From the NCBI GenBank assembly GCA_019057475.1, contig DXJO01000046.1, positions 1 through 64,000 on the forward strand: DNA of 64,000 nt. Reading direction: 5' to 3'. The DNA comes from Candidatus Thorarchaeota archaeon (GTDB lineage Archaea > Asgardarchaeota > Thorarchaeia > Thorarchaeales > Thorarchaeaceae). The notes below the pieces were generated by a model. It was not told the DNA's origin. It saw nothing but the letters and a program-made list of their open reading frames with translations, and made no database searches. Position numbers and translations under genes: made by a program. Below, in pieces: positions 16,047-24,233 of the stretch (position 1 is the stretch's first letter; every line of letters starts with the position of its first letter).

Positions 16047-17399
16047 TTAGCCCGAGATAACTCTGGCTGATTCGACCACAATCGAGGGCGTCACAACAGT
16101 TGATGTCACCCTAACGTCAGCCCCAACTCGATGAACTCTCTGAAGCAAGTCACGCATGTTGATGCCCACGAGAGTGTTCTTCACCGAATGTTCAATCGCC
16201 CCATCCTCAATGTAATGGCCTTCCATCACCATGGCGCTCAAATCGCCCGTCGTCATGTTTGGACGGTCCCCAGTATATCTGAACAGGATGCCCTTCTTGA
16301 TCTCGGAAACTAGGTCATCAAGGGTCCCTTTTCCAGGCGCTATGACAAGGTTGGAAGGCGAGATTGAGGGGAGTCCTGAGTAGGAGGGTCGACTTGCGTT
16401 TCCAGTGTTCTCCACCTGGTCCTTGTTGGCAGTATAGGAGTTGTGCAGGATGTTCTTCAATACCCCACCATGCAGAATCTGTGTGCGCTGTGTTGGAACC
16501 CCTTCGGCGTCAAAAGATCGAGAGCCAATCCCACCAGCTATATGAGAGTCGTCCATGATACTGAGCTCTTCCGATGCAATCGACTCGCCCAGTGCGTCTG
16601 CTATGTATGAGCGCCCGTATTGAATCTCCTCAGCATTGATGGCGCCTCCAAAGCCGCCTCCGATGATAGTGCTCACCGCGAGAGGCGTGAGAATGATGGG
16701 CATATCACCACCCTCAATTGTTCGACCACCGAGACTGTTTACTGCATTGCGCCCTGCAGTGGAGCCAACCCATTCAGGATCTATGTTCCTGAGGCTTCTA
16801 GATACTTGGAACTCGAAACTAGAAGTCTGGTCATTATCGTCCTTGACTGTGGGAGAGCTATAGATGAACATAGATGCGGTTTCCACGGAACCGGAGATGC
16901 CAAGGGAGTTGACTATTGCCTTGGTCCCTGCGGACGCATTCAACTGTGCTTCCACAGCAGTCTGCTTGGAGCCAACTGCTTCATTCGTAGCATCGACTGT
17001 CTGTATAATCAACTCTGCGGCTTCTTCAGATGAGAGCCTCTTAATTGCCGGGTCGAAGAGTCCCTTTACGGAGGGGTAGGTCCCGTCATAGGATGGCAAT
17101 GCAAAGAAGTCCGGGTCGGGCACTGATGCCTTTGCGAGTTCGACAGATCTTGCGGCGGCCTCAAGCAAATCCTCATCTTGAATCGTGGTGACATATGCAA
17201 AGCCGATCCCGCCCTTCTTGATCACTGAACGGATACCACATCCTGCGTCCCTCTTTTCAGATGCGCTCTTGATTGCACTATTCTCAACATTGATTGTGAA
17301 TGATCGTGATGCTGCTACATAGGCTTCGGCTTGACTTGCACCAAGTTCTTCCGCCCTTTTAACGACCAGTTCCCCAATCTCAAGAAGCTCGCCGTTCAA
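16047..17399 (-). CDS. pmbA: TldD/PmbA family protein, PmbA/TldE subunit
   Basis: GASQAEAY, FDAEGVPT, TGNASR, N.TTGD.S; no HExxxH. Confidence 0.9.
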   Translation of the reverse strand: MNGELLEIGELVVKRAEELGASQAEAYVAASRSFTINVENSAIKSASEKRDAGCGIRSVIKKGGIGFAYVTTIQDEDLLEAAARSVELAKASVPDPDFFALPSYDGTYPSVKGLFDPAIKRLSSEEAAELIIQTVDATNEAVGSKQTAVEAQLNASAGTKAIVNSLGISGSVETASMFIYSSPTVKDDNDQTSSFEFQVSRSLRNIDPEWVGSTAGRNAVNSLGGRTIEGGDMPIILTPLAVSTIIGGGFGGAINAEEIQYGRSYIADALGESIASEELSIMDDSHIAGGIGSRSFDAEGVPTQRTQILHGGVLKNILHNSYTANKDQVENTGNASRPSYSGLPSISPSNLVIAPGKGTLDDLVSEIKKGILFRYTGDRPNMTTGDLSAMVMEGHYIEDGAIEHSVKNTLVGINMRDLLQRVHRVGADVRVTSTVVTPSIVVESARVISG

Positions 17400-17400
17400 C

Positions 17401-18786
17401 TCACGCACCTCCCACAGGAATTTCTCTGATTCGAGCGTGAGGCCCACCGGACATTTCTGGCACAGCCTGTCCTGATTTTCCGCACGTGCCAGCTTCCATT
17501 GAGAAATCATTGCCGATGGCGTCTATCTTTGCTAGCACTTCAAGAATCTGTCCCGCCATTGATACATCGCGGACAAGCTCTGTGAGCTCACCGTTGTCTA
17601 TCAGGTATCCATAGTTAGCTTGGAACATGAACTGACCCTTAGAAGGGTCCGTATAGCCGTAGTTGAAACCGCATAGCAGAATTCCTCCATTTGTGTCCGA
17701 AATTAGCTCCTCGGCGTCCCAGTCACCAGGTTCCATGAAGGTATTGCTCATTCGAGGAAGGGGAGGATGCATGAAGGATTGAGCTCGGGCGGATCCATTT
17801 GGTTCCATGTCAAGAAGAACAGCGGTTTCCAAGCTATGCATCAACTCTGTCAAGATTCCATCCTTCACTAAGGTTCTTTTTCTTGTCTTGGTGCCTTCCC
17901 AATCGTATTCAAAGGACCCTCGCTTGCCAGGCAAGGTTGGATCGTCTGTCAAGTTCAAGTGCTCTGGGCCAACCTTTTTTCCCACCTTGTCCTCAAGAAT
18001 TGTCGTGTGTGCTGGCCAGTTATCAGCCTCAGATGCATGACCAAAGGCCTCATGAACCATCACACCGTTGAGAACAGGATCCATAACTACGTCGTAGGTT
18101 CCACCTTTGGCCGCTTTAGATGAGAGAAGGTCTATGGCAAGCTTTGCAGACTCCTCGCCAATGTGTTGGGGCCGCTCCGTTTCCAACTCTTCGAATCCCC
18201 CTCTTGTGCCCACTGACTTGAAACCACGTTGTCGATTAGCACCATCTTTCGCTGTTGTGACCGAGATTATTCTTGGCAATGAATTCTCTAGATGGACGCT
18301 CGTGCCGAAGGAGTTCGCAATGTAAAGCTCGGTCCACAGGTCTCCGTAGACAGTTCGAGTGTTGTGGACCCGGCCATCAAAGTCACGGGCTTGATCATCA
18401 ATCATCTTTGCGAAAGCAATCTTCTCCTCAAACGTGACGCCCTGAACTGGCCTTTTGACATTCAGTCTGACCTTGTCCTGGAAAGATGGACCATCAATCT
18501 CGAATCGCTTTGCTACCCTGCTACGTGTTGCTAGCGCCAGGCGCGCAACAGACTCCCCAGTTTCTCGCATGCCTTTCAGTGTCAGATCAGTTGCCTGTCC
18601 AAAGGCCCATGCGCCATCAATGAATGCCCTAATTCCAGCGCCCTTCAACCTCGAGGCGAGCGAACGCTTTGTAACGCCATCACTCATCTCAATGATTGTA
18701 GTTGTGGTGTTCTCGATTCGAACGTCAGCAAACTTAGCGCCAACCTTGAGAACTGCTTCAATGGCAGCGCTGGCCGCATCTTCCAT
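17401..18786 (-). CDS. tldD: TldD metalloprotease
   Basis: HEAFGHASEAD, DDPT, YDWEG, PRMSNT, CGKSGQ. Confidence 0.93.
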   Translation of the reverse strand: MEDAASAAIEAVLKVGAKFADVRIENTTTTIIEMSDGVTKRSLASRLKGAGIRAFIDGAWAFGQATDLTLKGMRETGESVARLALATRSRVAKRFEIDGPSFQDKVRLNVKRPVQGVTFEEKIAFAKMIDDQARDFDGRVHNTRTVYGDLWTELYIANSFGTSVHLENSLPRIISVTTAKDGANRQRGFKSVGTRGGFEELETERPQHIGEESAKLAIDLLSSKAAKGGTYDVVMDPVLNGVMVHEAFGHASEADNWPAHTTILEDKVGKKVGPEHLNLTDDPTLPGKRGSFEYDWEGTKTRKRTLVKDGILTELMHSLETAVLLDMEPNGSARAQSFMHPPLPRMSNTFMEPGDWDAEELISDTNGGILLCGFNYGYTDPSKGQFMFQANYGYLIDNGELTELVRDVSMAGQILEVLAKIDAIGNDFSMEAGTCGKSGQAVPEMSGGPHARIREIPVGGA

Positions 18787-19033
18787 AGTAATCGCCTCGG
18801 GGTCTTTGCTCAGGCGCGGCATTGCGGTTTAACTAGTTTCGGATACGGAGTTTGCACCATTCGAGGCGCTCTCACGCCAATCATGAATGACTGCAGATCT
18901 ACAGTCAAATGTGGGTCAATGTGTTCAGGACTATCAAGTCTCCTGCAATTGTTGTGGGTGTTTTGGGGATAATACACGGGTCTTTTTGGCCTGCATGGAC
19001 AAGGGAGATGGGCCATGGACCGGAGGTGCCCAG

Positions 19034-20608
19034 TTGACTGAGGAGTCCTCAAACCGTATATGCAGAGCATGCAAGAGCAAAGGTGCCACTCACCTGTGTG
19101 AAGATTGTGGAGCAGTGCTCTGCTCGAATTGTCTTGAAACCAAGTCTACATCTTCATACGTATGCAAAGATTGTCATAGTATATTGGGCACTCCGTTGCC
19201 CGGGCAAAGGTTTGAGGAATGCAGTGACTGTGGGTCTGAGAATCTGAGTGTAGGTAGGCGGATGGAGGAGATATGTCCCGAGTGTCACTCTACCCGCACC
19301 ATCTTGGTGGATGTTAAGCAAAGGAGCATCGCACAAGAACTCAGGCAGGCAATCAACAGCTTGCAGTATGGCCACATAAAATTGAGAGAACTCAATAACA
19401 GACTAATCGGAGCAAAGCGCCTGCTCGTTTCCTTGAGGATGGCTAACTTCTTGCACTATAGGTGGCTGGATGACAAAATCCAGAGCACACAGGAGGAGCT
19501 ACCCGCAATCAAGAATCGGATAGGAAACCAAGCAGACATGTTAGCCAGGCAAATTGCAGCTGAAACAAAGGGTTTGATGAACACTGCCTCCTGGTCCGCC
19601 TCCCAGTTTCCGTTCATTGAAGGTGTTACAAACAGGGTGACGCATCTGGTCAACCAGTACAAGCACTCTGTGGACGAAGCATTGAGTGAAGCCGATCTTA
19701 CCTTGAAGGACATTACAAAGCAACTAGACGGATTGAACTATTACCGGTCACGGTTCTCTGGTTTTTACGAGCAAACTGAACTCTCAATCAACGAACTGCC
19801 TGTCTGTGCGCTACCCAAAATCAAAGTCACAGGGAGCGACTTCCTCAAGCATGACAAGGCAACTGGCACTCTCTTCATCACGAACAGGAGACTCGTCTTC
19901 ATTGGGCAGACAGGTGTTGTTCGCAAGAAAACTGAGATTATCTTTGACTTTCCGCTTCTCTACCTGACCTCTATCGAGGAGGATGGTAGATTCAGGAAGA
20001 GAATTGTTCTGAAGATGAAACAAGGCGAAGTGAAGATTTCCTGCAGTGAGCAAACGAAGAAAGTACTACCGGATTACGTCGAGATTGCTAAGAAGTTTGA
20101 CAGGTATATGCAGACAGACCTGCAGAAGGTACGGAAACTAGAGCAGGTAAATGTCAACGTAAGCGACGTCAGACTCAGGATTGAGGACCTGATTTATTCG
20201 TTGAATACGGGAAGGAATAGACCGAGATCCTGTATGACATACCCACAGACACCGGCTGGAGCGTACTATGCTGAGCCATCAAGTCCCCAACCGAGGTATG
20301 CCCACCGCGATTACGGAAGCTATCGTCAAGGGGCTCAACTCAAGGACCACCTGGAGAGGACAATAGATAGACGTGCATATCAGCAGTATCCAGGTGCAAG
20401 AGGCGAGATGGTGGCAGAAATTGAAACCCTCAGGAGAAACGCATCATCTTTGGACAACGCATTACGTGATACTGTTCATCTCTTCAGGGGAGGAAGACTT
20501 GTTCCAGAGGATTTCATCAGACGGTACAAGGGACTGATGCGTGACTCATACTATACAAGAAAAGAAATCGAAAGAAAATCTTCAAGAGACGCGGGCTACT
20601 ACAGGTAA
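19034..20608 (+). CDS. ESCRT-associated multidomain protein: Zn fingers, coiled coil, PH/GRAM(GLUE)-like domain, steadiness-box-like C-terminus
   Basis: GGAGGTG RBS before TTG 19034; six CxxC; GTLFITNRRLVF; LDNALRDTVHLFRGGRLVPEDFIRRYKGLMRDSY; adjacent to the ESCRT-III gene. Confidence 0.7.
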   Translation: MTEESSNRICRACKSKGATHLCEDCGAVLCSNCLETKSTSSYVCKDCHSILGTPLPGQRFEECSDCGSENLSVGRRMEEICPECHSTRTILVDVKQRSIAQELRQAINSLQYGHIKLRELNNRLIGAKRLLVSLRMANFLHYRWLDDKIQSTQEELPAIKNRIGNQADMLARQIAAETKGLMNTASWSASQFPFIEGVTNRVTHLVNQYKHSVDEALSEADLTLKDITKQLDGLNYYRSRFSGFYEQTELSINELPVCALPKIKVTGSDFLKHDKATGTLFITNRRLVFIGQTGVVRKKTEIIFDFPLLYLTSIEEDGRFRKRIVLKMKQGEVKISCSEQTKKVLPDYVEIAKKFDRYMQTDLQKVRKLEQVNVNVSDVRLRIEDLIYSLNTGRNRPRSCMTYPQTPAGAYYAEPSSPQPRYAHRDYGSYRQGAQLKDHLERTIDRRAYQQYPGARGEMVAEIETLRRNASSLDNALRDTVHLFRGGRLVPEDFIRRYKGLMRDSYYTRKEIERKSSRDAGYYR

Positions 20609-20610
20609 CC

Positions 20611-21234
20611 TCAAATGCCTAGCTCGCTCTCCAGAGATTTGATAGCTTCTTCGAGTTCATCGGTCTGGCTGGCAGGTCTAGTGTCAGTTGAGGCTTCTGC
20701 TAGTCCTGCCTCCTTGTCTATCTCTTGCATGGAAGCAGCCAAATCATCCGTTGTGATCTCCGGCATCGTGGCATGAAATGCATCATCAGCGATACCACTC
20801 TCGATTTCGAATTCCTCTAAGCGCTGAGCTATCTCATCGACATTAGCGACTACCTTCGTGGCATCGGTTGCATTTCCCAGCAACCCAAGGATCTTGGCGA
20901 CCTCATCCATGGCGCGATTCGTCTTGGCAGCTGTCTGCGCACGGTTGACATGAGCGAGAATTTTGAGGATGTTGAGCCGCGACCTATCAACAGAAAGCGC
21001 AAACCTACGAAACCGGACCATCTCGGTCGCATAGGTTCGAAATGCGTTCACCTGTCCGGCCTTGCGTGCACGCACAGCCCTGCTCTTAGTTCCCCGCTCC
21101 TCCTTCTCGAGCTTGTTCCGTTGTCGTTCCAGCTGCTTCGCTAATATTCGCAGCTCGCTCTTGACTTCTCCAATGTCGGGTTTCTTCCGACCCCAAGAGA
21201 AAGCCTTTTTTATTGTACCCAAGTGCCTCACCAA
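20611..21234 (-). CDS. ESCRT-III subunit, Vps2/24/46 (CHMP1-3)-like, Snf7 family
   Basis: Basic helical hairpin LRILAKQLERQRNKLEKEE...KAGQ...RTYA.E.VR; acidic C-terminal half; MIM1-like ELEEAIKSL. Confidence 0.9.
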   Translation of the reverse strand: MVRHLGTIKKAFSWGRKKPDIGEVKSELRILAKQLERQRNKLEKEERGTKSRAVRARKAGQVNAFRTYATEMVRFRRFALSVDRSRLNILKILAHVNRAQTAAKTNRAMDEVAKILGLLGNATDATKVVANVDEIAQRLEEFEIESGIADDAFHATMPEITTDDLAASMQEIDKEAGLAEASTDTRPASQTDELEEAIKSLESELGI

Positions 21235-21411: not shown

Positions 21412-22641
21412 ATGTCAGGATCAGATAGCGACAGGTTAGACATTGGGCTCAAGAATCTACTCGACAAAGCGATAGAGTTGGACAATAGAGGAATGAAGAA
21501 AGAAGCTTGTCAGTACTATCTGCGAGCCAGCAAGATTCTCATCAAGCTCTCAAAGTCTACGTCCCTCCCTTCTGTTCGAAAGCATTACTTCAAGCGAGCC
21601 CAGGAGTGTGTTGATAGAGTCCGATACCTCTCAGGAATCAAGAAGAAGGCCCGTGGGCCAGTTGATGGCCTGCAGACTCCTCTAAAGAGCGATATCAGAG
21701 CAGTCACTGAGTCGGCTGTTAGTAAGCGACCTGATGCCACTCCCGAGCCAGACGAAGATACTAAGAGGCTCCAAGAGATGATTGCGGATACAATTGTCAC
21801 AGAGCGCCCCAACGTCAATCTGTCCGAGGTCGCCGGTCTCGACGATGCAAAACAAGCCATCTACGATGCGATACTGGCACCGATGAAGCATCCAGAGTTA
21901 TTCAAAGGAAAAGCGAGGCAGCCGTGGAGAGGCATCCTGTTGTACGGTCCAGCGGGCTGTGGGAAGACATTGATAGCGAAAGCAGTTGCAGCCGAAGTCA
22001 ACGCCACATTCTTCAACGTGTCAGCCGCCAATATAGTGAGTAAATGGCTTGGCGAATCTGAACGTCTAGTCATGCGCCTCTTTGAGATGGCAAGAAAGAA
22101 CCAACCAGCAATCATCTTCATGGACGAGCTGGATTCAATTGGCGTTTCAAGGTCCGGGGATGATGTTGGAGGCGAAAGGCGGCTAAAGACTCAGTTGTTA
22201 ACAGAGCTGCAGGGTCTCGCAAGCGACCAGAATGAGAGAATTACGCTAATTGGCGCAACCAATCTCCCGTGGGAATTGGACTTTGCTTTGAGGTCCCGTT
22301 TCGAGAAGCGAATCCATGTACCGCTACCGGATAAGAGAGGACGAAAAGAGATTTTCAGGATTCATATCGAAGATGTAGAGTTAGCATCAGAAGTGGACTT
22401 TGAGGAGCTTGCAAGTCTTAGTGAGGGGTACAGTGGAAGGGACATCGGTGTGGTCTGTAGAGAGGCGGCAATGGAACCCATAAGAGACCTTCAGAAGACA
22501 GGAAGAATGGAAGAGGAAGCGGAGATACTGAACCTTCGCCCTGTTTCGAGAGAGGACTTTCTTGGAGCCATTGAGAATATCAGGCCAGCGACGTCCCCAG
22601 AAGATATCAAGAAGTACATTGACTGGGCGGAGGGGTCGTAG
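21412..22641 (+). CDS. vps4: Vps4 AAA ATPase (MIT domain + AAA)
   Basis: MIT AIELD...EA...Y; VAGLDDAK, PWRGILLYGPAGCGKT, SKWLGESE, FMDELD, ATNLPWELD, EGYSGRDI. Confidence 0.95.
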   Translation: MSGSDSDRLDIGLKNLLDKAIELDNRGMKKEACQYYLRASKILIKLSKSTSLPSVRKHYFKRAQECVDRVRYLSGIKKKARGPVDGLQTPLKSDIRAVTESAVSKRPDATPEPDEDTKRLQEMIADTIVTERPNVNLSEVAGLDDAKQAIYDAILAPMKHPELFKGKARQPWRGILLYGPAGCGKTLIAKAVAAEVNATFFNVSAANIVSKWLGESERLVMRLFEMARKNQPAIIFMDELDSIGVSRSGDDVGGERRLKTQLLTELQGLASDQNERITLIGATNLPWELDFALRSRFEKRIHVPLPDKRGRKEIFRIHIEDVELASEVDFEELASLSEGYSGRDIGVVCREAAMEPIRDLQKTGRMEEEAEILNLRPVSREDFLGAIENIRPATSPEDIKKYIDWAEGS

Positions 22642-22644
22642 GGC

Positions 22645-23373
22645 TTGGGTATCAAGGAGCGACAGCGAGAGAAGAAGAAGACAGAAGAACCTGTCAAAGA
22701 TGCTGCCGAGCCCTCGGTGGTTATGAAGCAGACTACTGCTAGTGATGATTCCGCACACATACCAGAGATTGTTGTAAAAGTGGATGGTGGGTCCAATGCA
22801 ACTGACACCATCGAAACTGCTGTCGTTGAACCAGAACAAATGATGGACACTGAAGCGGCCGCCGTAACCGAAATCGTGCCGCGATGGGGGAACATAGGAG
22901 AAGCTGAGTGGATGTACAACATTCCCACGAGGTCGCAGGACCTGGTTCTCTGGGCCGAAGAATGGGGAGACTTCCTGCTTGAATGGACAGAATTCGAGAA
23001 GATTCATGTTCTCTCTGTTTCAGCATTCATTTCGAAACCCCCATTCAAGGACATACTTGGGAAAGTCAAAGCCTTTAGATCAATCGGAGACTCGTTAGTT
23101 GGGAAAGATGTTGCTGCATGGCTTGATCGGAATAGAGAACAACTCAGAGTGTACTGGAGACCACTGGGGGAGTGGGCGGACTTGGTCTACAGATGGGCTC
23201 TGGACACAGGCATACTTCGTCTCGATGTGAAGTCACTGGTCATCCAAGAAGCAGAGCAGGCTTTTTCGAAACTTCCTGAAGAGGACATCCACGGGATAAT
23301 GGCTCTACTTGTTGAGAGGGGATTTGCCAAGTGGGTTGATAAAAAAGCTGGGGCTATTGTTGTCAAAGTCTAA
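22645..23373 (+). CDS. vps25: ESCRT-II Vps25-like protein with acidic N-terminal extension
   Basis: W..EWGDFLLEW and VYWRPLGEWADLVYRWA..TG match Vps25 WH1/WH2. Confidence 0.85.
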   Translation: MGIKERQREKKKTEEPVKDAAEPSVVMKQTTASDDSAHIPEIVVKVDGGSNATDTIETAVVEPEQMMDTEAAAVTEIVPRWGNIGEAEWMYNIPTRSQDLVLWAEEWGDFLLEWTEFEKIHVLSVSAFISKPPFKDILGKVKAFRSIGDSLVGKDVAAWLDRNREQLRVYWRPLGEWADLVYRWALDTGILRLDVKSLVIQEAEQAFSKLPEEDIHGIMALLVERGFAKWVDKKAGAIVVKV

Positions 23374-23378
23374 TCGAT

Positions 23379-24137
23379 TCAGGCTTCGGAAGTGCCTCCG
23401 CTCTCTGAATCATCTCTTGATCTCAAACCAGGGAAGTAATATCGTCCACCCGTGCTGAATCTGATGTCGGCAACAGCCATGCCGGCATCCACTAGACTAG
23501 TGAGAACCTGACGAGCGTGATCTTCTGACCACTTCAGGTTCATCATGACCTCTTCAATCGAAACGTACCCCTTCAAGGCCGCCAAGTTAATTACATCGGA
23601 TTGGTCTCGACGAAGCTCAAGGGGACGAAGCTCCACGACCTTTACGCCTCCTCTCAGAGTTCGTATGCCGGGTATTAGACCGTGTTCGGCGACTCGGTTC
23701 ACTGCCTCGATAACATCACTGAAGCTTACTGCCTTGAATTGAGGAAGCCGTTTAACCACCTCAACAATCAGCTCTGCGAGACCCATGAGTCCCTTCGAAG
23801 CGTGGATTGTGGCGACGTCAAGTATCGCCAACCCAATGTAGTCATAGAATTCGTCAAGGGTCAGACCTTGCGGAACAGACCTCATAGATTGCACAGACAG
23901 GTCCAACATATTCATTGCGTTAGGAAATCTTTCAAGGATTCTTTCATGGTCAAGGAACCGAAAGATATCCGTCCCCAGACGCCTCAGCTCACCGATGTTG
24001 GACTTGACTTCTTGAACCAGTGCCTCCGATTCTCGCTCGAATGTTCGGATTTCTACCGCACCGAGGTCGTATATCATCTTCAGCTGGTCCAACGTGGCAA
24101 TTGAAGCAAATATCTCAGTTTGAAGTCGCTCATGCAT
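23379..24137 (-). CDS. ESCRT-II Vps22/EAP30-like protein with Vps28-N-like N-terminal domain
   Basis: DEFYDYIG..I, GLMGLAEL, PLEL..DQ..V..LA...GYVS...LKWS..HA..VL..L...GMA..D, YYFPG (Vps22); N-terminal EIFASIATLDQLKMIY. Confidence 0.85.
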   Translation of the reverse strand: MHERLQTEIFASIATLDQLKMIYDLGAVEIRTFERESEALVQEVKSNIGELRRLGTDIFRFLDHERILERFPNAMNMLDLSVQSMRSVPQGLTLDEFYDYIGLAILDVATIHASKGLMGLAELIVEVVKRLPQFKAVSFSDVIEAVNRVAEHGLIPGIRTLRGGVKVVELRPLELRRDQSDVINLAALKGYVSIEEVMMNLKWSEDHARQVLTSLVDAGMAVADIRFSTGGRYYFPGLRSRDDSESGGTSEA

Positions 24138-24233
24138 CGGCTCGCATCCCTTCATACATCTAGATAGCTGACTAAGCTGACAGAACAAAGCTCTCGCTAC
24201 TTGCTTTAAGACGGAGTATTATTCGAAGCATCA

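Follow-up and report, generated by a model that had tools for sequence, protein, structure and literature searches.

The window (the whole 64,000-nt stretch of a Candidatus Thorarchaeota contig analysed here) carries a gene for a multidomain protein with N-terminal zinc modules, a PH domain and a C-terminal helical hairpin, followed by genes for ESCRT-III, Vps4 and ESCRT-II. The genes and features are:

19021..19027, + strand: GGAGGTG, Shine-Dalgarno-like, 6 nt ahead of the TTG, read directly
19034..20608, + strand: Znr_CC_PH_SB protein gene, 524 aa, TTG start, stop codon included
19061..19174, + strand: first zinc module, four CxxC pairs (C10-C47) with B-box/RING/ZZ-like spacing, two predicted Zn sites
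19220..19285, + strand: second zinc module, a zinc ribbon CxxC-x14-CxxC (C63-C84) around a beta hairpin, invariant Cys
19307..19774, + strand: helical stalk or bundle of three long helices (AlphaFold2)
19781..20101, + strand: PH domain, residues 250-356, GRAM/GLUE-like (fold matches, Pfam)
20102..20206, + strand: post-PH segment of conserved short helices, residues 357-391 (conservation, AlphaFold2)
20216..20398, + strand: variable disordered Pro/Tyr/Arg-rich linker, residues ~395-455 (pLDDT <50, poor conservation)
20399..20602, + strand: Vps23-type steadiness-box helical hairpin, residues 456-523 (pLDDT 93-97, hhalign, superposition)
20611..21234, - strand: ESCRT-III, Snf7 family (Pfam Snf7, E 2.9e-10); convergent, stop codons 2 nt apart
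21412..22641, + strand: Vps4, MIT + AAA + Vps4_C (Pfam)
22645..23373, + strand: Vps25, ESCRT-II (Pfam ESCRT-II, E 2.4e-12)
23379..24137, - strand: Vps22/EAP30, ESCRT-II, probable 252-aa form (Pfam EAP30; homologues mostly 252 aa)
23883..24137, - strand: Vps28-N-like hairpin fused to the Vps22 N-terminus, where the steadiness box is predicted to dock

Gene and start codon

The full open frame around the gene runs from 18887 to 20608 (573 aa by ORF reading). The first-pass annotation had placed the start at the TTG at 19034, and this is the real start: GGAGGTG lies upstream, and the start codon is kept in orthologues. At the aligned position, all 61 Thorarchaeota loci compared have a start codon (TTG in 49, ATG in 10, GTG in 2), and in 57 of these loci a GGAGG-like motif lies no more than 16 nt upstream. 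Homologues are mostly 515-530 aa long, and more than 100 Thorarchaeota proteins share 50-60% identity, which rules out a chance ORF. The AlphaFold2 model of the 524-aa protein has a mean pLDDT of 81.7. For the protein on its own, Pfam and NCBIfam gave sub-threshold matches only, and a sequence-profile search of the PDB returned nothing significant (Vps23 at E 0.13-0.73, RNF4 at E 0.016).

Predicted zinc sites at the N-terminus

The N-terminus carries six CxxC pairs (C10/13, C22/25, C30/33, C44/47, C63/66 and C81/84), and each of the 12 Cys is either invariant or conserved to 90% or more among 38 Thorarchaeota sequences and 27 divergent family members. The six pairs had been recognised before and they stand; the first gap, given earlier as x7, is actually x8, the full spacing being CxxC-x8-CxxC-x4-CxxC-x10-CxxC-x15-CxxC-x14-CxxC. 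The region, with its three predicted Zn sites, is modelled confidently as a beta-rich structure. Of 122 protein sequences compared (120 public homologues and the gene of the window in two translations), 23 lack the first pair.

Modelled as an isolated domain, the first zinc module reaches a pLDDT of 85.7. The B-box/TRIM character proposed for it is only a loose resemblance: Pfam zf-B_box (PF00643) gives E 2.7e-4 on this protein, scoring 21.5 bits where the cut-off is 24.1, and its matches in 18 of the 27 family members (best E 1.9e-5) all fall below curated cut-offs. For the module folded alone, Foldseek returned nothing at E <= 0.001, and the structural matches were all weak, with a best VIA Z of 5.1; the KAP1 and COL2 B-boxes scored Z 4.3, tied with RING, ZZ and U-box, a level at which Z does not discriminate. 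The second module shows strands at 71-80 and 89-91 in the models and matches Pfam DZR at E 0.0068.

Stalk, PH domain and linker

Where about 150 aa of coiled coil had been expected, AlphaFold2 predicts long helices spanning residues 92-240 (92-136, 143-178 and 189-240), with a short one at 242-247; no other block of the family is as well conserved within Thorarchaeota as this stalk. The PH domain that follows is modelled as seven strands (256-336) capped by a helix at 339-353. The segment GTLFITNRRLVF (residues 278-289), earlier taken for a PH-GRAM/GLUE-type strand, indeed lies within these strands, in a domain that superposes on GRAM-type and also on GLUE domains. The best superposition is with the MTMR2 PH-GRAM domain (1lw3_A; VIA Z 13.2, rmsd 2.7 A over 107 residues), followed by Lam6 (Z 12.4) and the EAP45 GLUE domain (2dx5_A; Z 10.4, 23% identity); Foldseek returned 2hth_B (TM 0.59) and 1zsq. 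Pfam bPH_3 matches 20 of the 27 family members and GRAM (PF02893) 8, while the Vps36_ESCRT-II model gave weak matches in 3 of the 27. The GRAM match falls below the cut-off, with E 0.18 here and E 4.7e-5 in the best-scoring relative. Conserved basic residues are R286, K298, R319, K322 and R323.

The helices and PH domain taken together also resembled DH-PH (RhoGEF) proteins (Foldseek E ~1e-5, VIA Z ~10-11); since the rmsd is 5-20 A once the helices are counted, we took this as a match to the PH domain only and not to a DH domain. Beyond the post-PH helices, the Pro/Tyr-rich linker noted on first reading is borne out as a disordered segment at ~395-455, rich in R, Y and P (R 8, Y 8 and P 7 of 61 residues), with a short helix at 433-448 inside it.

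A C-terminal hairpin of the Vps23 type

The C-terminal hairpin (AlphaFold2 helices 456-485/491-523) is, judged by profile comparison, homologous to the Vps23 steadiness box. The family C-terminus aligns by hhalign with Asgard UEV-Vps23 proteins (Prob 97.5-97.9, E 7.6e-12 to 4.5e-13), and the Thorarchaeota C-terminus aligns with those of family members outside Thorarchaeota (Prob 96.2, E 2.7e-9). Compared directly with Vps23, the Thorarchaeota C-terminus aligns in the same register at P 0.0098; this direct alignment is weak and there is no direct Vps23_core match, so the homology rests on intermediates. Pfam Vps23_core (PF09454) has no match to this protein at E <= 1 and none in its genome; it matches 15 of the 27 family members, and three relatives picked up by a blind scan of genomes have C-termini that score above its curated cut-off. 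For this hairpin, hhalign places Vps23 closer than the Vps28-type hairpin. In superposition its rmsd to yeast Vps23 (residues 321-385) is 1.4 A, with a Z of ~10 that does not discriminate among helical hairpins, and its rmsd to the filament hairpin of S. islandicus CdvA (9s9g_A) is 0.9 A across 69 residues (Z 10.6). The Vps23-core-like C-terminus suggested by the first-pass annotation is thus supported through both the relatives outside Thorarchaeota and the 1.4 A superposition. Neither Pfam nor AlphaFold2 reveals a UEV/E2 fold in this protein, and the genome has none; the protein is therefore Vps23-like in its C-terminus only.

When the genome was searched with an HMM built without Thorarchaeota sequences, this ORF was the only one found (E 5e-6). 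Two other ORFs of the genome that are weakly steadiness-box-like (C13:3990-4394 and C56:3410-4051) have no informative Pfam match and were set aside.

ESCRT neighbourhood and a predicted partner

The gene order Znr_CC_PH_SB, Snf7, Vps4, Vps25, Vps22 is found in every Thorarchaeota locus that extends far enough. The same synteny also spans unrelated TldD/PmbA and AspRS genes, so within-class synteny is weak evidence alone. The family gene stays paired with ESCRT-III both in Thorarchaeota and at several distant Asgard loci, and ESCRT genes lie within ~10 kb of the family gene in 15 of 20 distant Asgard loci. The genome has a second ESCRT-III paralogue at C56:20136-20618.

We found no Vps28, Vps23_core or E2 in the window's own genome (96% complete). 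Among 43 genomes of its family, Vps28 occurs in one, Vps23_core in one and E2/UEV in none, as against 137, 58 and, for E2, 141 of 201 Asgard genomes across the phylum. The family coexists with Vps28 elsewhere in the phylum, whereas in Thorarchaeota it stands without it. The ubiquitin independence conjectured earlier fits the absence of E2/UEV in these counts, and Thorarchaeota reportedly lack ubiquitin (Hatano 2022, PMC9192718).

The Vps28-N-like hairpin at the Vps22 N-terminus matches the Vps28 N-terminus of other Asgard lineages by tblastn (E 2e-7), and an entry in Table S3 of Makarova 2024 (PMC10936438) pairs Thorarchaeota Vps22 residues 1-70 with PF03997 at 99%. The steadiness box is predicted by complex modelling to dock there: the model gave an ipSAE of 0.75 (runs 0.75, 0.77 and 0.71; best control 0.01), a mark attained by 58 of 80 solved complexes and by 2 of 110 mismatched pairs, although Vps23-Vps28 headpieces have been solved (2F66, 2P22, 6VME) and the score may therefore mirror likeness rather than binding of this copy. 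Contacts agreed at 100% between runs, partner pLDDT was at least 73, and the Vps22 interface comprised residues 3-40. The predicted interface falls on the most conserved residues, with F494, Y498, M502, R503 and Y506 facing A11, A14 and T15 of Vps22.

Family membership and published identity

A profile search for the family yielded 124 cluster representatives, and divergent members of 480-830 aa keep the order zinc modules, helices, PH domain, C-terminal hairpin. The family has a match in 182 of 201 Asgard genomes and was found in Asgard-derived sequences only; a related-locus search from one family alignment returned Thorarchaeota matches only.

Our own homology searches identify the gene product as a member of Znr_CC_PH_SB (= Znr_PH_CC_SB; asCOG cog.011556), defined by Makarova 2024 (mBio, PMC10936438) and proposed there as an ESCRT-I component with a membrane-binding PH domain. 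The architecture is the same (three zinc modules, a coiled-coil/helical region, PH domain and C-terminal steadiness box), as are the Asgard-only distribution, the ESCRT neighbourhood and the proposed role; nothing essential differs. In addition, Supplementary Data 1 of Hatano 2022 (Nat Commun, PMC9192718) lists ThorAB25_08990|SB, from Thorarchaeota AB_25, in a two-hybrid screen. We located its motifs in locus L022, a direct orthologue at 56% identity that shares the locus order. Unlike the TTG-started gene, the published sequence begins at an internal Met (MCEDCG...) and so is short of 20 N-terminal residues, the first CxxC pair among them. The legend of Supplementary Fig. 8 in the same paper names RING, CC, PH and 23-SB among the domains of Asgard ESCRT-I-like proteins, and the paper reports that a freestanding steadiness box protein of Lokiarchaeota binds Vps22 in two-hybrid.

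The protein type was thus already published, in 2022 (Hatano) and 2024 (Makarova); with family and architecture in the literature, the window adds no discovery. Its additions are modest: the corrected start, which gives back the first zinc-ligand pair missing in the published ThorAB25 sequence, a specific predicted interface between steadiness box and Vps22, and phylum-wide counts of coexistence with Vps28.

Discussion

The protein shares with Vps23/Tsg101 a homologous steadiness-box hairpin, a helical stalk ahead of it, a Pro-rich disordered linker and a predicted partner of the Vps28-N type. It differs in having zinc modules and a PH domain at the N-terminus in place of a UEV, and its linker lies between PH domain and steadiness box, whereas that of Vps23 follows the UEV. 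Its PH fold resembles the Vps36/EAP45 GLUE domain, and both are ESCRT proteins that combine PH and zinc fingers; in GLUE (PF11605), however, one or more zinc fingers are inserted in a split PH domain, whereas here the PH domain is continuous and the zinc modules are N-terminal. GRAM-type PH domains (MTMR2, Lam6) fit better than GLUE, and the EAP30 winged helices of Vps36 are lacking.

Our preferred reading is that the gene is the Thorarchaeota orthologue of the Asgard-specific Znr_CC_PH_SB, which is also the freestanding steadiness-box protein of Hatano 2022, and that its product is most likely an ESCRT-I-like upstream adaptor that makes no use of ubiquitin. The GRAM/GLUE-like PH domain, with its conserved basic patch, would keep the protein at the membrane. 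The Vps23-type hairpin, whose homology is established by profiles, would pack on the Vps28-N-like hairpin fused to Vps22 through the predicted contact, and this packing would tie the adaptor directly to ESCRT-II (Vps22/Vps25). ESCRT-II would in turn nucleate the adjoining ESCRT-III, which Vps4 would then recycle. The succession ESCRT-II, ESCRT-III, Vps4 is the established eukaryotic order. For Asgard archaea, this order is backed by published two-hybrid data. More speculatively, the three-zinc module and helical stalk probably bind some partner or self-associate, and the protein may sense lipid or cargo.

Asgard ESCRT-I/II proteins bear on the origin of eukaryotic membrane trafficking, and Znr_CC_PH_SB is the main candidate for bringing ESCRT to membranes in lineages without a ubiquitin-binding Vps23. 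A bolder and distinctly tentative version is that in Thorarchaeota, where ubiquitin, E2/UEV, Vps23 and free Vps28 are lacking, the protein might be the sole ESCRT-I-type element; it and the Vps28N-Vps22 fusion would then make up a minimal ESCRT-I/II supercomplex, independent of ubiquitin and targeted by lipid (through PH) and by a non-ubiquitin signal (through the three-zinc module). If true, this supercomplex could represent either the state before ubiquitin joined ESCRT sorting or a secondary loss.

A division adaptor resembling CdvA, which would polymerise or anchor at the membrane via hairpin and PH domain and recruit the adjacent ESCRT-III directly, with ESCRT-II contact secondary, is rather unlikely in our judgement. 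In Crenarchaeota, CdvA recruits CdvB. Like CdvA, the protein would act as an adaptor at the membrane, upstream of ESCRT-III, and the helical hairpins of the two (9s9g_A for CdvA) are homologous or similar; the gene abuts a convergent ESCRT-III gene in a pairing that recurs in distant lineages, weak Pfam CdvA matches occur in 2 of 27 members, and Makarova 2024 (PMC10936438) relates the steadiness box to CdvA. Against this, the C-terminal profile is far nearer to Vps23 (E 4.5e-13) than those weak CdvA matches, and a full ESCRT-II is kept, complete with the Vps28-N-like docking hairpin on which the model puts the steadiness box. CdvA itself carries a PRC barrel and a tail that binds ESCRT-III, and lacks PH domain and zinc modules, whereas in this protein we saw neither PRC barrel nor E3B-type ESCRT-III-binding peptide. 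The CdvA-like reading overlaps in part with that of an ESCRT-I-like adaptor.

We regard as highly improbable a TRIM-like E3 ligase or ubiquitin-related factor, in which a B-box/RING-like zinc module and coiled coil would act in conjugation of ubiquitin or a ubiquitin-like protein. The zinc-module matches to RING, U-box, ZZ and B-box (RNF4 at E 0.016, zf-B_box in 18 of 27, Z 4-5) and the word RING in the Hatano 2022 figure legend point that way, but every match lies below curated cut-offs or at a non-discriminating Z, the third set of CxxC pairs is a plain zinc ribbon, and E2 is found in neither the genome itself nor the 43 sampled genomes of its family, from a lineage reportedly without ubiquitin.

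It is equally hard to credit a generic PH protein of bacterial type whose C-terminal hairpin is coincidental and which has no functional link to ESCRT, a case the first-pass annotation had itself raised: the top Pfam PH match is bPH_3 ("bacterial PH"), helical hairpins are common and the Thorarchaeota synteny takes in unrelated genes too, but the PH domain is of GRAM/GLUE flavour with an ESCRT link, ESCRT genes lie near the family in those 15 of 20 loci, drawn from many distant Asgard families, the family was found in Asgard-derived sequences only, and its C-terminus is homologous to Vps23_core, with three relatives above the curated cut-off.

A known Asgard family and its gene

The protein encoded at window 19034-20608 (+), P0002 (524 aa), has exactly the architecture published for the Asgard family Znr_CC_PH_SB (asCOG cog.011556), which Makarova et al. 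(2024, PMC10936438) describe as missing from eukaryotes, shared by several Asgard lineages, probably ancestral, and a likely ESCRT-I component whose PH domain is expected to be membrane-associated. The family appears as 'Steadiness/Vps23 box' in a 2023 preprint (10.1101/2023.07.25.550441), and 'ThorAB25_08990|SB' is among the two-hybrid screen proteins of Hatano et al. (2022, PMC9192718), whose Supplementary Fig. 8 legend gives the domains RING, CC, PH and 23-SB. The ThorAB25_08990 motifs are encoded in L022, the AB_25 locus orthologous to the window's gene. Because these three sources describe it, the zinc finger/coiled coil/PH/steadiness-box chimera recognized in the first-pass annotation is correct and already known. 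Close relatives of P0002 number more than 100 (50-60% identity across ~90% of its length), almost all annotated as Thorarchaeota 'hypothetical protein', and homologues are mostly 515-530 aa long.

The longest open frame around the gene covers 18887-20608 (+) and overshoots the gene start by 49 codons (18887-19033); the real gene is shorter, 19034-20608, and is preceded by one signal:

19021-19027 (+): ribosome-binding motif GGAGGTG, six bases upstream of the TTG

The gene coordinates assigned from the sequence alone are upheld by this motif with its TTG and by start-codon conservation: the first aligned codon is a start codon in 61 of 61 Thorarchaeota orthologous loci (TTG 49, ATG 10, GTG 2), and a GGAGG-like motif lies just 5' of it in 57 of them. 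Start annotation is uneven across the family (cases include the homologues P0047, P0062, P0064, P0090 and P0101). In 23 of 122 protein sequences (120 public homologues plus two translations of the window's gene) the start is an internal Met (MCxxCG), so that the first pair of CxxC zinc ligands is lost; one such truncated form is ThorAB25_08990, as used in the published two-hybrid assays.

Domain architecture

An AlphaFold2 model of P0002 built on 38 homologues (mean pLDDT 81.7) resolves the following regions.

Regions of P0002 in the AlphaFold2 model
Residues 1-91: zinc region, beta-rich
Residues 92-136, 143-178, 189-240: three long helices
Residues 256-336: PH domain, seven strands; capping helix 339-353
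After the PH domain, up to residue 391: short conserved helices
Residues about 395-455: linker, disordered, poorly conserved, Arg/Tyr/Pro-rich
Residues 456-485/491-523: helical hairpin, pLDDT 93-97

Across Thorarchaeota, and in divergent family members too, the twelve Cys that make up the six CxxC pairs show no or almost no variation; the pairs were read correctly, the sole slip being the spacer after the first, which is x8 and not x7. Folded alone, the zinc module gives a confident model (pLDDT 85.7), for which a Foldseek search returned no significant match and the VIA structural search only weak ones (best Z 5.1, with ZZ, RING, U-box and B-box tied). Pfam zf-B_box matches P0002 just under its cut-off, and the Cys spacing can fairly be called 'B-box-like'; for a lineage lacking E2, an E3 function of the TRIM type is unlikely. 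ANCHR is an abscission-checkpoint protein that binds Vps4. Pfam ANCHR-like_BBOX matches weakly in 9 of 27 family members (the broad alignment A2), and a PDB profile search matched the FYVE domain of ZFYVE19/ANCHR (1wfk, E 0.029); both matches probably reflect cysteine spacing only.

The PH domain had been called PH-GRAM/GLUE-type, and an all-against-representatives structural search agrees while placing it closer to GRAM-type domains (MTMR2 1lw3_A, the top match, Z 13.2, rmsd 2.7 A over 107 residues; Lam6 5yqr_A, Z 12.4) than to the Vps36/EAP45 GLUE domain (2dx5_A, Z 10.4, 23% identity). Foldseek concurs (2hth_B, 1zsq, 5yqr), and among 27 diverse family members Pfam reports bPH_3 in 20, GRAM in 8 and Vps36_ESCRT-II in 3. 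At least 80% of family sequences have a basic residue at positions R286, K298, R319, K322 and R323, which is compatible with a possible binding of anionic lipid.

The C-terminal hairpin is a steadiness box

Pfam Vps23_core does not match P0002 itself; it does match the extreme C-terminus in 15 of 27 relatives (best E 7.2e-6). Run blind across 201 Asgard genomes, this profile hit two kinds of target: ~260-aa ORFs adjoining Vps28, which are taken to be UEV-Vps23, and Znr_CC_PH_SB C-termini, three of which exceed the curated cut-off. In profile-profile comparisons, non-Thorarchaeota family C-termini match Asgard UEV-Vps23 (Prob 97.9, E 4.5e-13) and Thorarchaeota C-termini match the non-Thorarchaeota ones (Prob 96.2, E 2.7e-9), so that the suggested likeness to the Vps23 core is borne out through these relatives. 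The direct Thorarchaeota-Vps23 comparison gives P 0.0098 in an unchanged register, against 0.09-0.33 for control comparisons with other domains of P0002; Vps23 is also much closer than the Vps28-type hairpin (E 2e-5 to 7e-5). An HMM built without Thorarchaeota sequences found P0002's ORF as the sole significant match (E 5e-6) among 26,549 six-frame ORFs of its own genome. In superposition, the hairpin lies within 1.4 A rmsd of yeast Vps23 residues 321-385 and within 0.9 A of the CdvA filament hairpin; a Z of ~10 does not discriminate among helical hairpins.

Two small ORFs on other contigs of this genome, C13:3990-4394 (-) and C56:3410-4051 (+), match the steadiness-box profile weakly (E 0.002-0.07), and Pfam returned nothing informative on either. 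They could be further hairpin proteins (a third headpiece member, or the 'BAR-SB' type that Makarova et al. 2024, PMC10936438, give for Thorarchaeota) or chance matches.

An ESCRT locus, with no Vps28, Vps23_core or E2 found in the genome

By Pfam, the gene is accompanied by ESCRT-III, which is convergent with it (2 nt between the stop codons), and by Vps4, Vps25 and Vps22/EAP30. This order is conserved in every sufficiently long Thorarchaeota locus. Unrelated flanking genes are also kept, so within-class synteny is weak evidence; among them, a divergent upstream gene pair at 16047-18822 (-), which from reading the sequences we take to be PmbA/TldD-like, keeps its synteny with the ESCRT locus in almost every Thorarchaeota locus examined. 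The informative test of ESCRT linkage is offered by distant Asgard loci: 182 of 201 Asgard genomes contain a match to the family profile, and ESCRT genes (Snf7, Vps4, Vps25, Vps22, Vps28) lie within ~10 kb in 15 of 20 loci drawn from many other Asgard families.

Several features of the ESCRT genes themselves were also observed. A second, better-scoring ESCRT-III (Snf7) paralogue lies outside the locus on a separate contig (G000:C56:20136-20618 (-), locus L125). The Vps25 ORF carries an acidic low-complexity N-terminal extension of ~100 aa ahead of its winged helices (22645-22950), also seen in the ThorAB25 orthologue; some Vps25 N-termini resemble steadiness boxes according to Makarova et al. 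(2024, PMC10936438). The longest Vps22 ORF (23379-24188 (-), 269 aa, TTG start) is probably over-extended, its homologues being mostly 252 aa, equivalent to a start at 24137.

With the 201-genome phylum sample as positive control, Vps28 is found in 1 of 43 genomes of the window's own GTDB family versus 137 of 201, Vps23_core in 1 of 43 versus 58 of 201, and E2 (UQ_con) in 0 of 43 versus 141 of 201; all three were sought in the window's own genome (96% complete) and none was found. The 2023 preprint (10.1101/2023.07.25.550441) reports UEV-Vps23 as missing from Loki- and Thorarchaeia. The Vps22 of the locus has an N-terminal hairpin that matches Vps28 N-termini from elsewhere in the Asgard archaea (tblastn E 2e-7), the sole one in this genome; Table S3 of Makarova et al. 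(2024, PMC10936438) gives the same for another Thorarchaeota Vps22.

Predicted docking on Vps22

In eukaryotic ESCRT-I, the N-terminal hairpin of Vps28 packs with the Vps23 steadiness box, and we therefore examined docking of the P0002 hairpin on the Vps22 N-terminus. The complex model (P0002 residues 430-524, Vps22 residues 1-95) reached an ipSAE of 0.75 (three runs: 0.75, 0.77, 0.71), compared with 0.01 for the highest-scoring of three controls; in a benchmark, 58 of 80 solved complexes scored that high, as did 2 of 110 mismatched pairs. Contact agreement between runs was 100%, partner pLDDT was at least 73, and the modelled interface, formed by residues 3-40 of Vps22 and 481-510 of the adaptor, draws on the residues best conserved in the two alignments. 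Because Vps23-Vps28 structures are already solved, this result may stem from those known structures, and the predicted complex shows likeness to Vps23-Vps28, not binding. [quoted passage not shown] 2022, PMC9192718).

The working model that we consider most likely runs in four steps: the PH domain would sit on the membrane; the C-terminal hairpin would bind the Vps28N-Vps22 fusion; ESCRT-II (Vps22/Vps25) would nucleate the adjacent ESCRT-III; and Vps4 would remodel it. A CdvA-like route, in which ESCRT-III is recruited directly, is a less likely alternative and could coexist with the ESCRT-II route.

Trp is the last residue in 99 of the 122 sequences. P0002 and its closest relatives end instead in ...GYYR (20597-20605), while P0003, a 93% identical homologue, ends in ...GYHW; this may be a short C-terminal motif.
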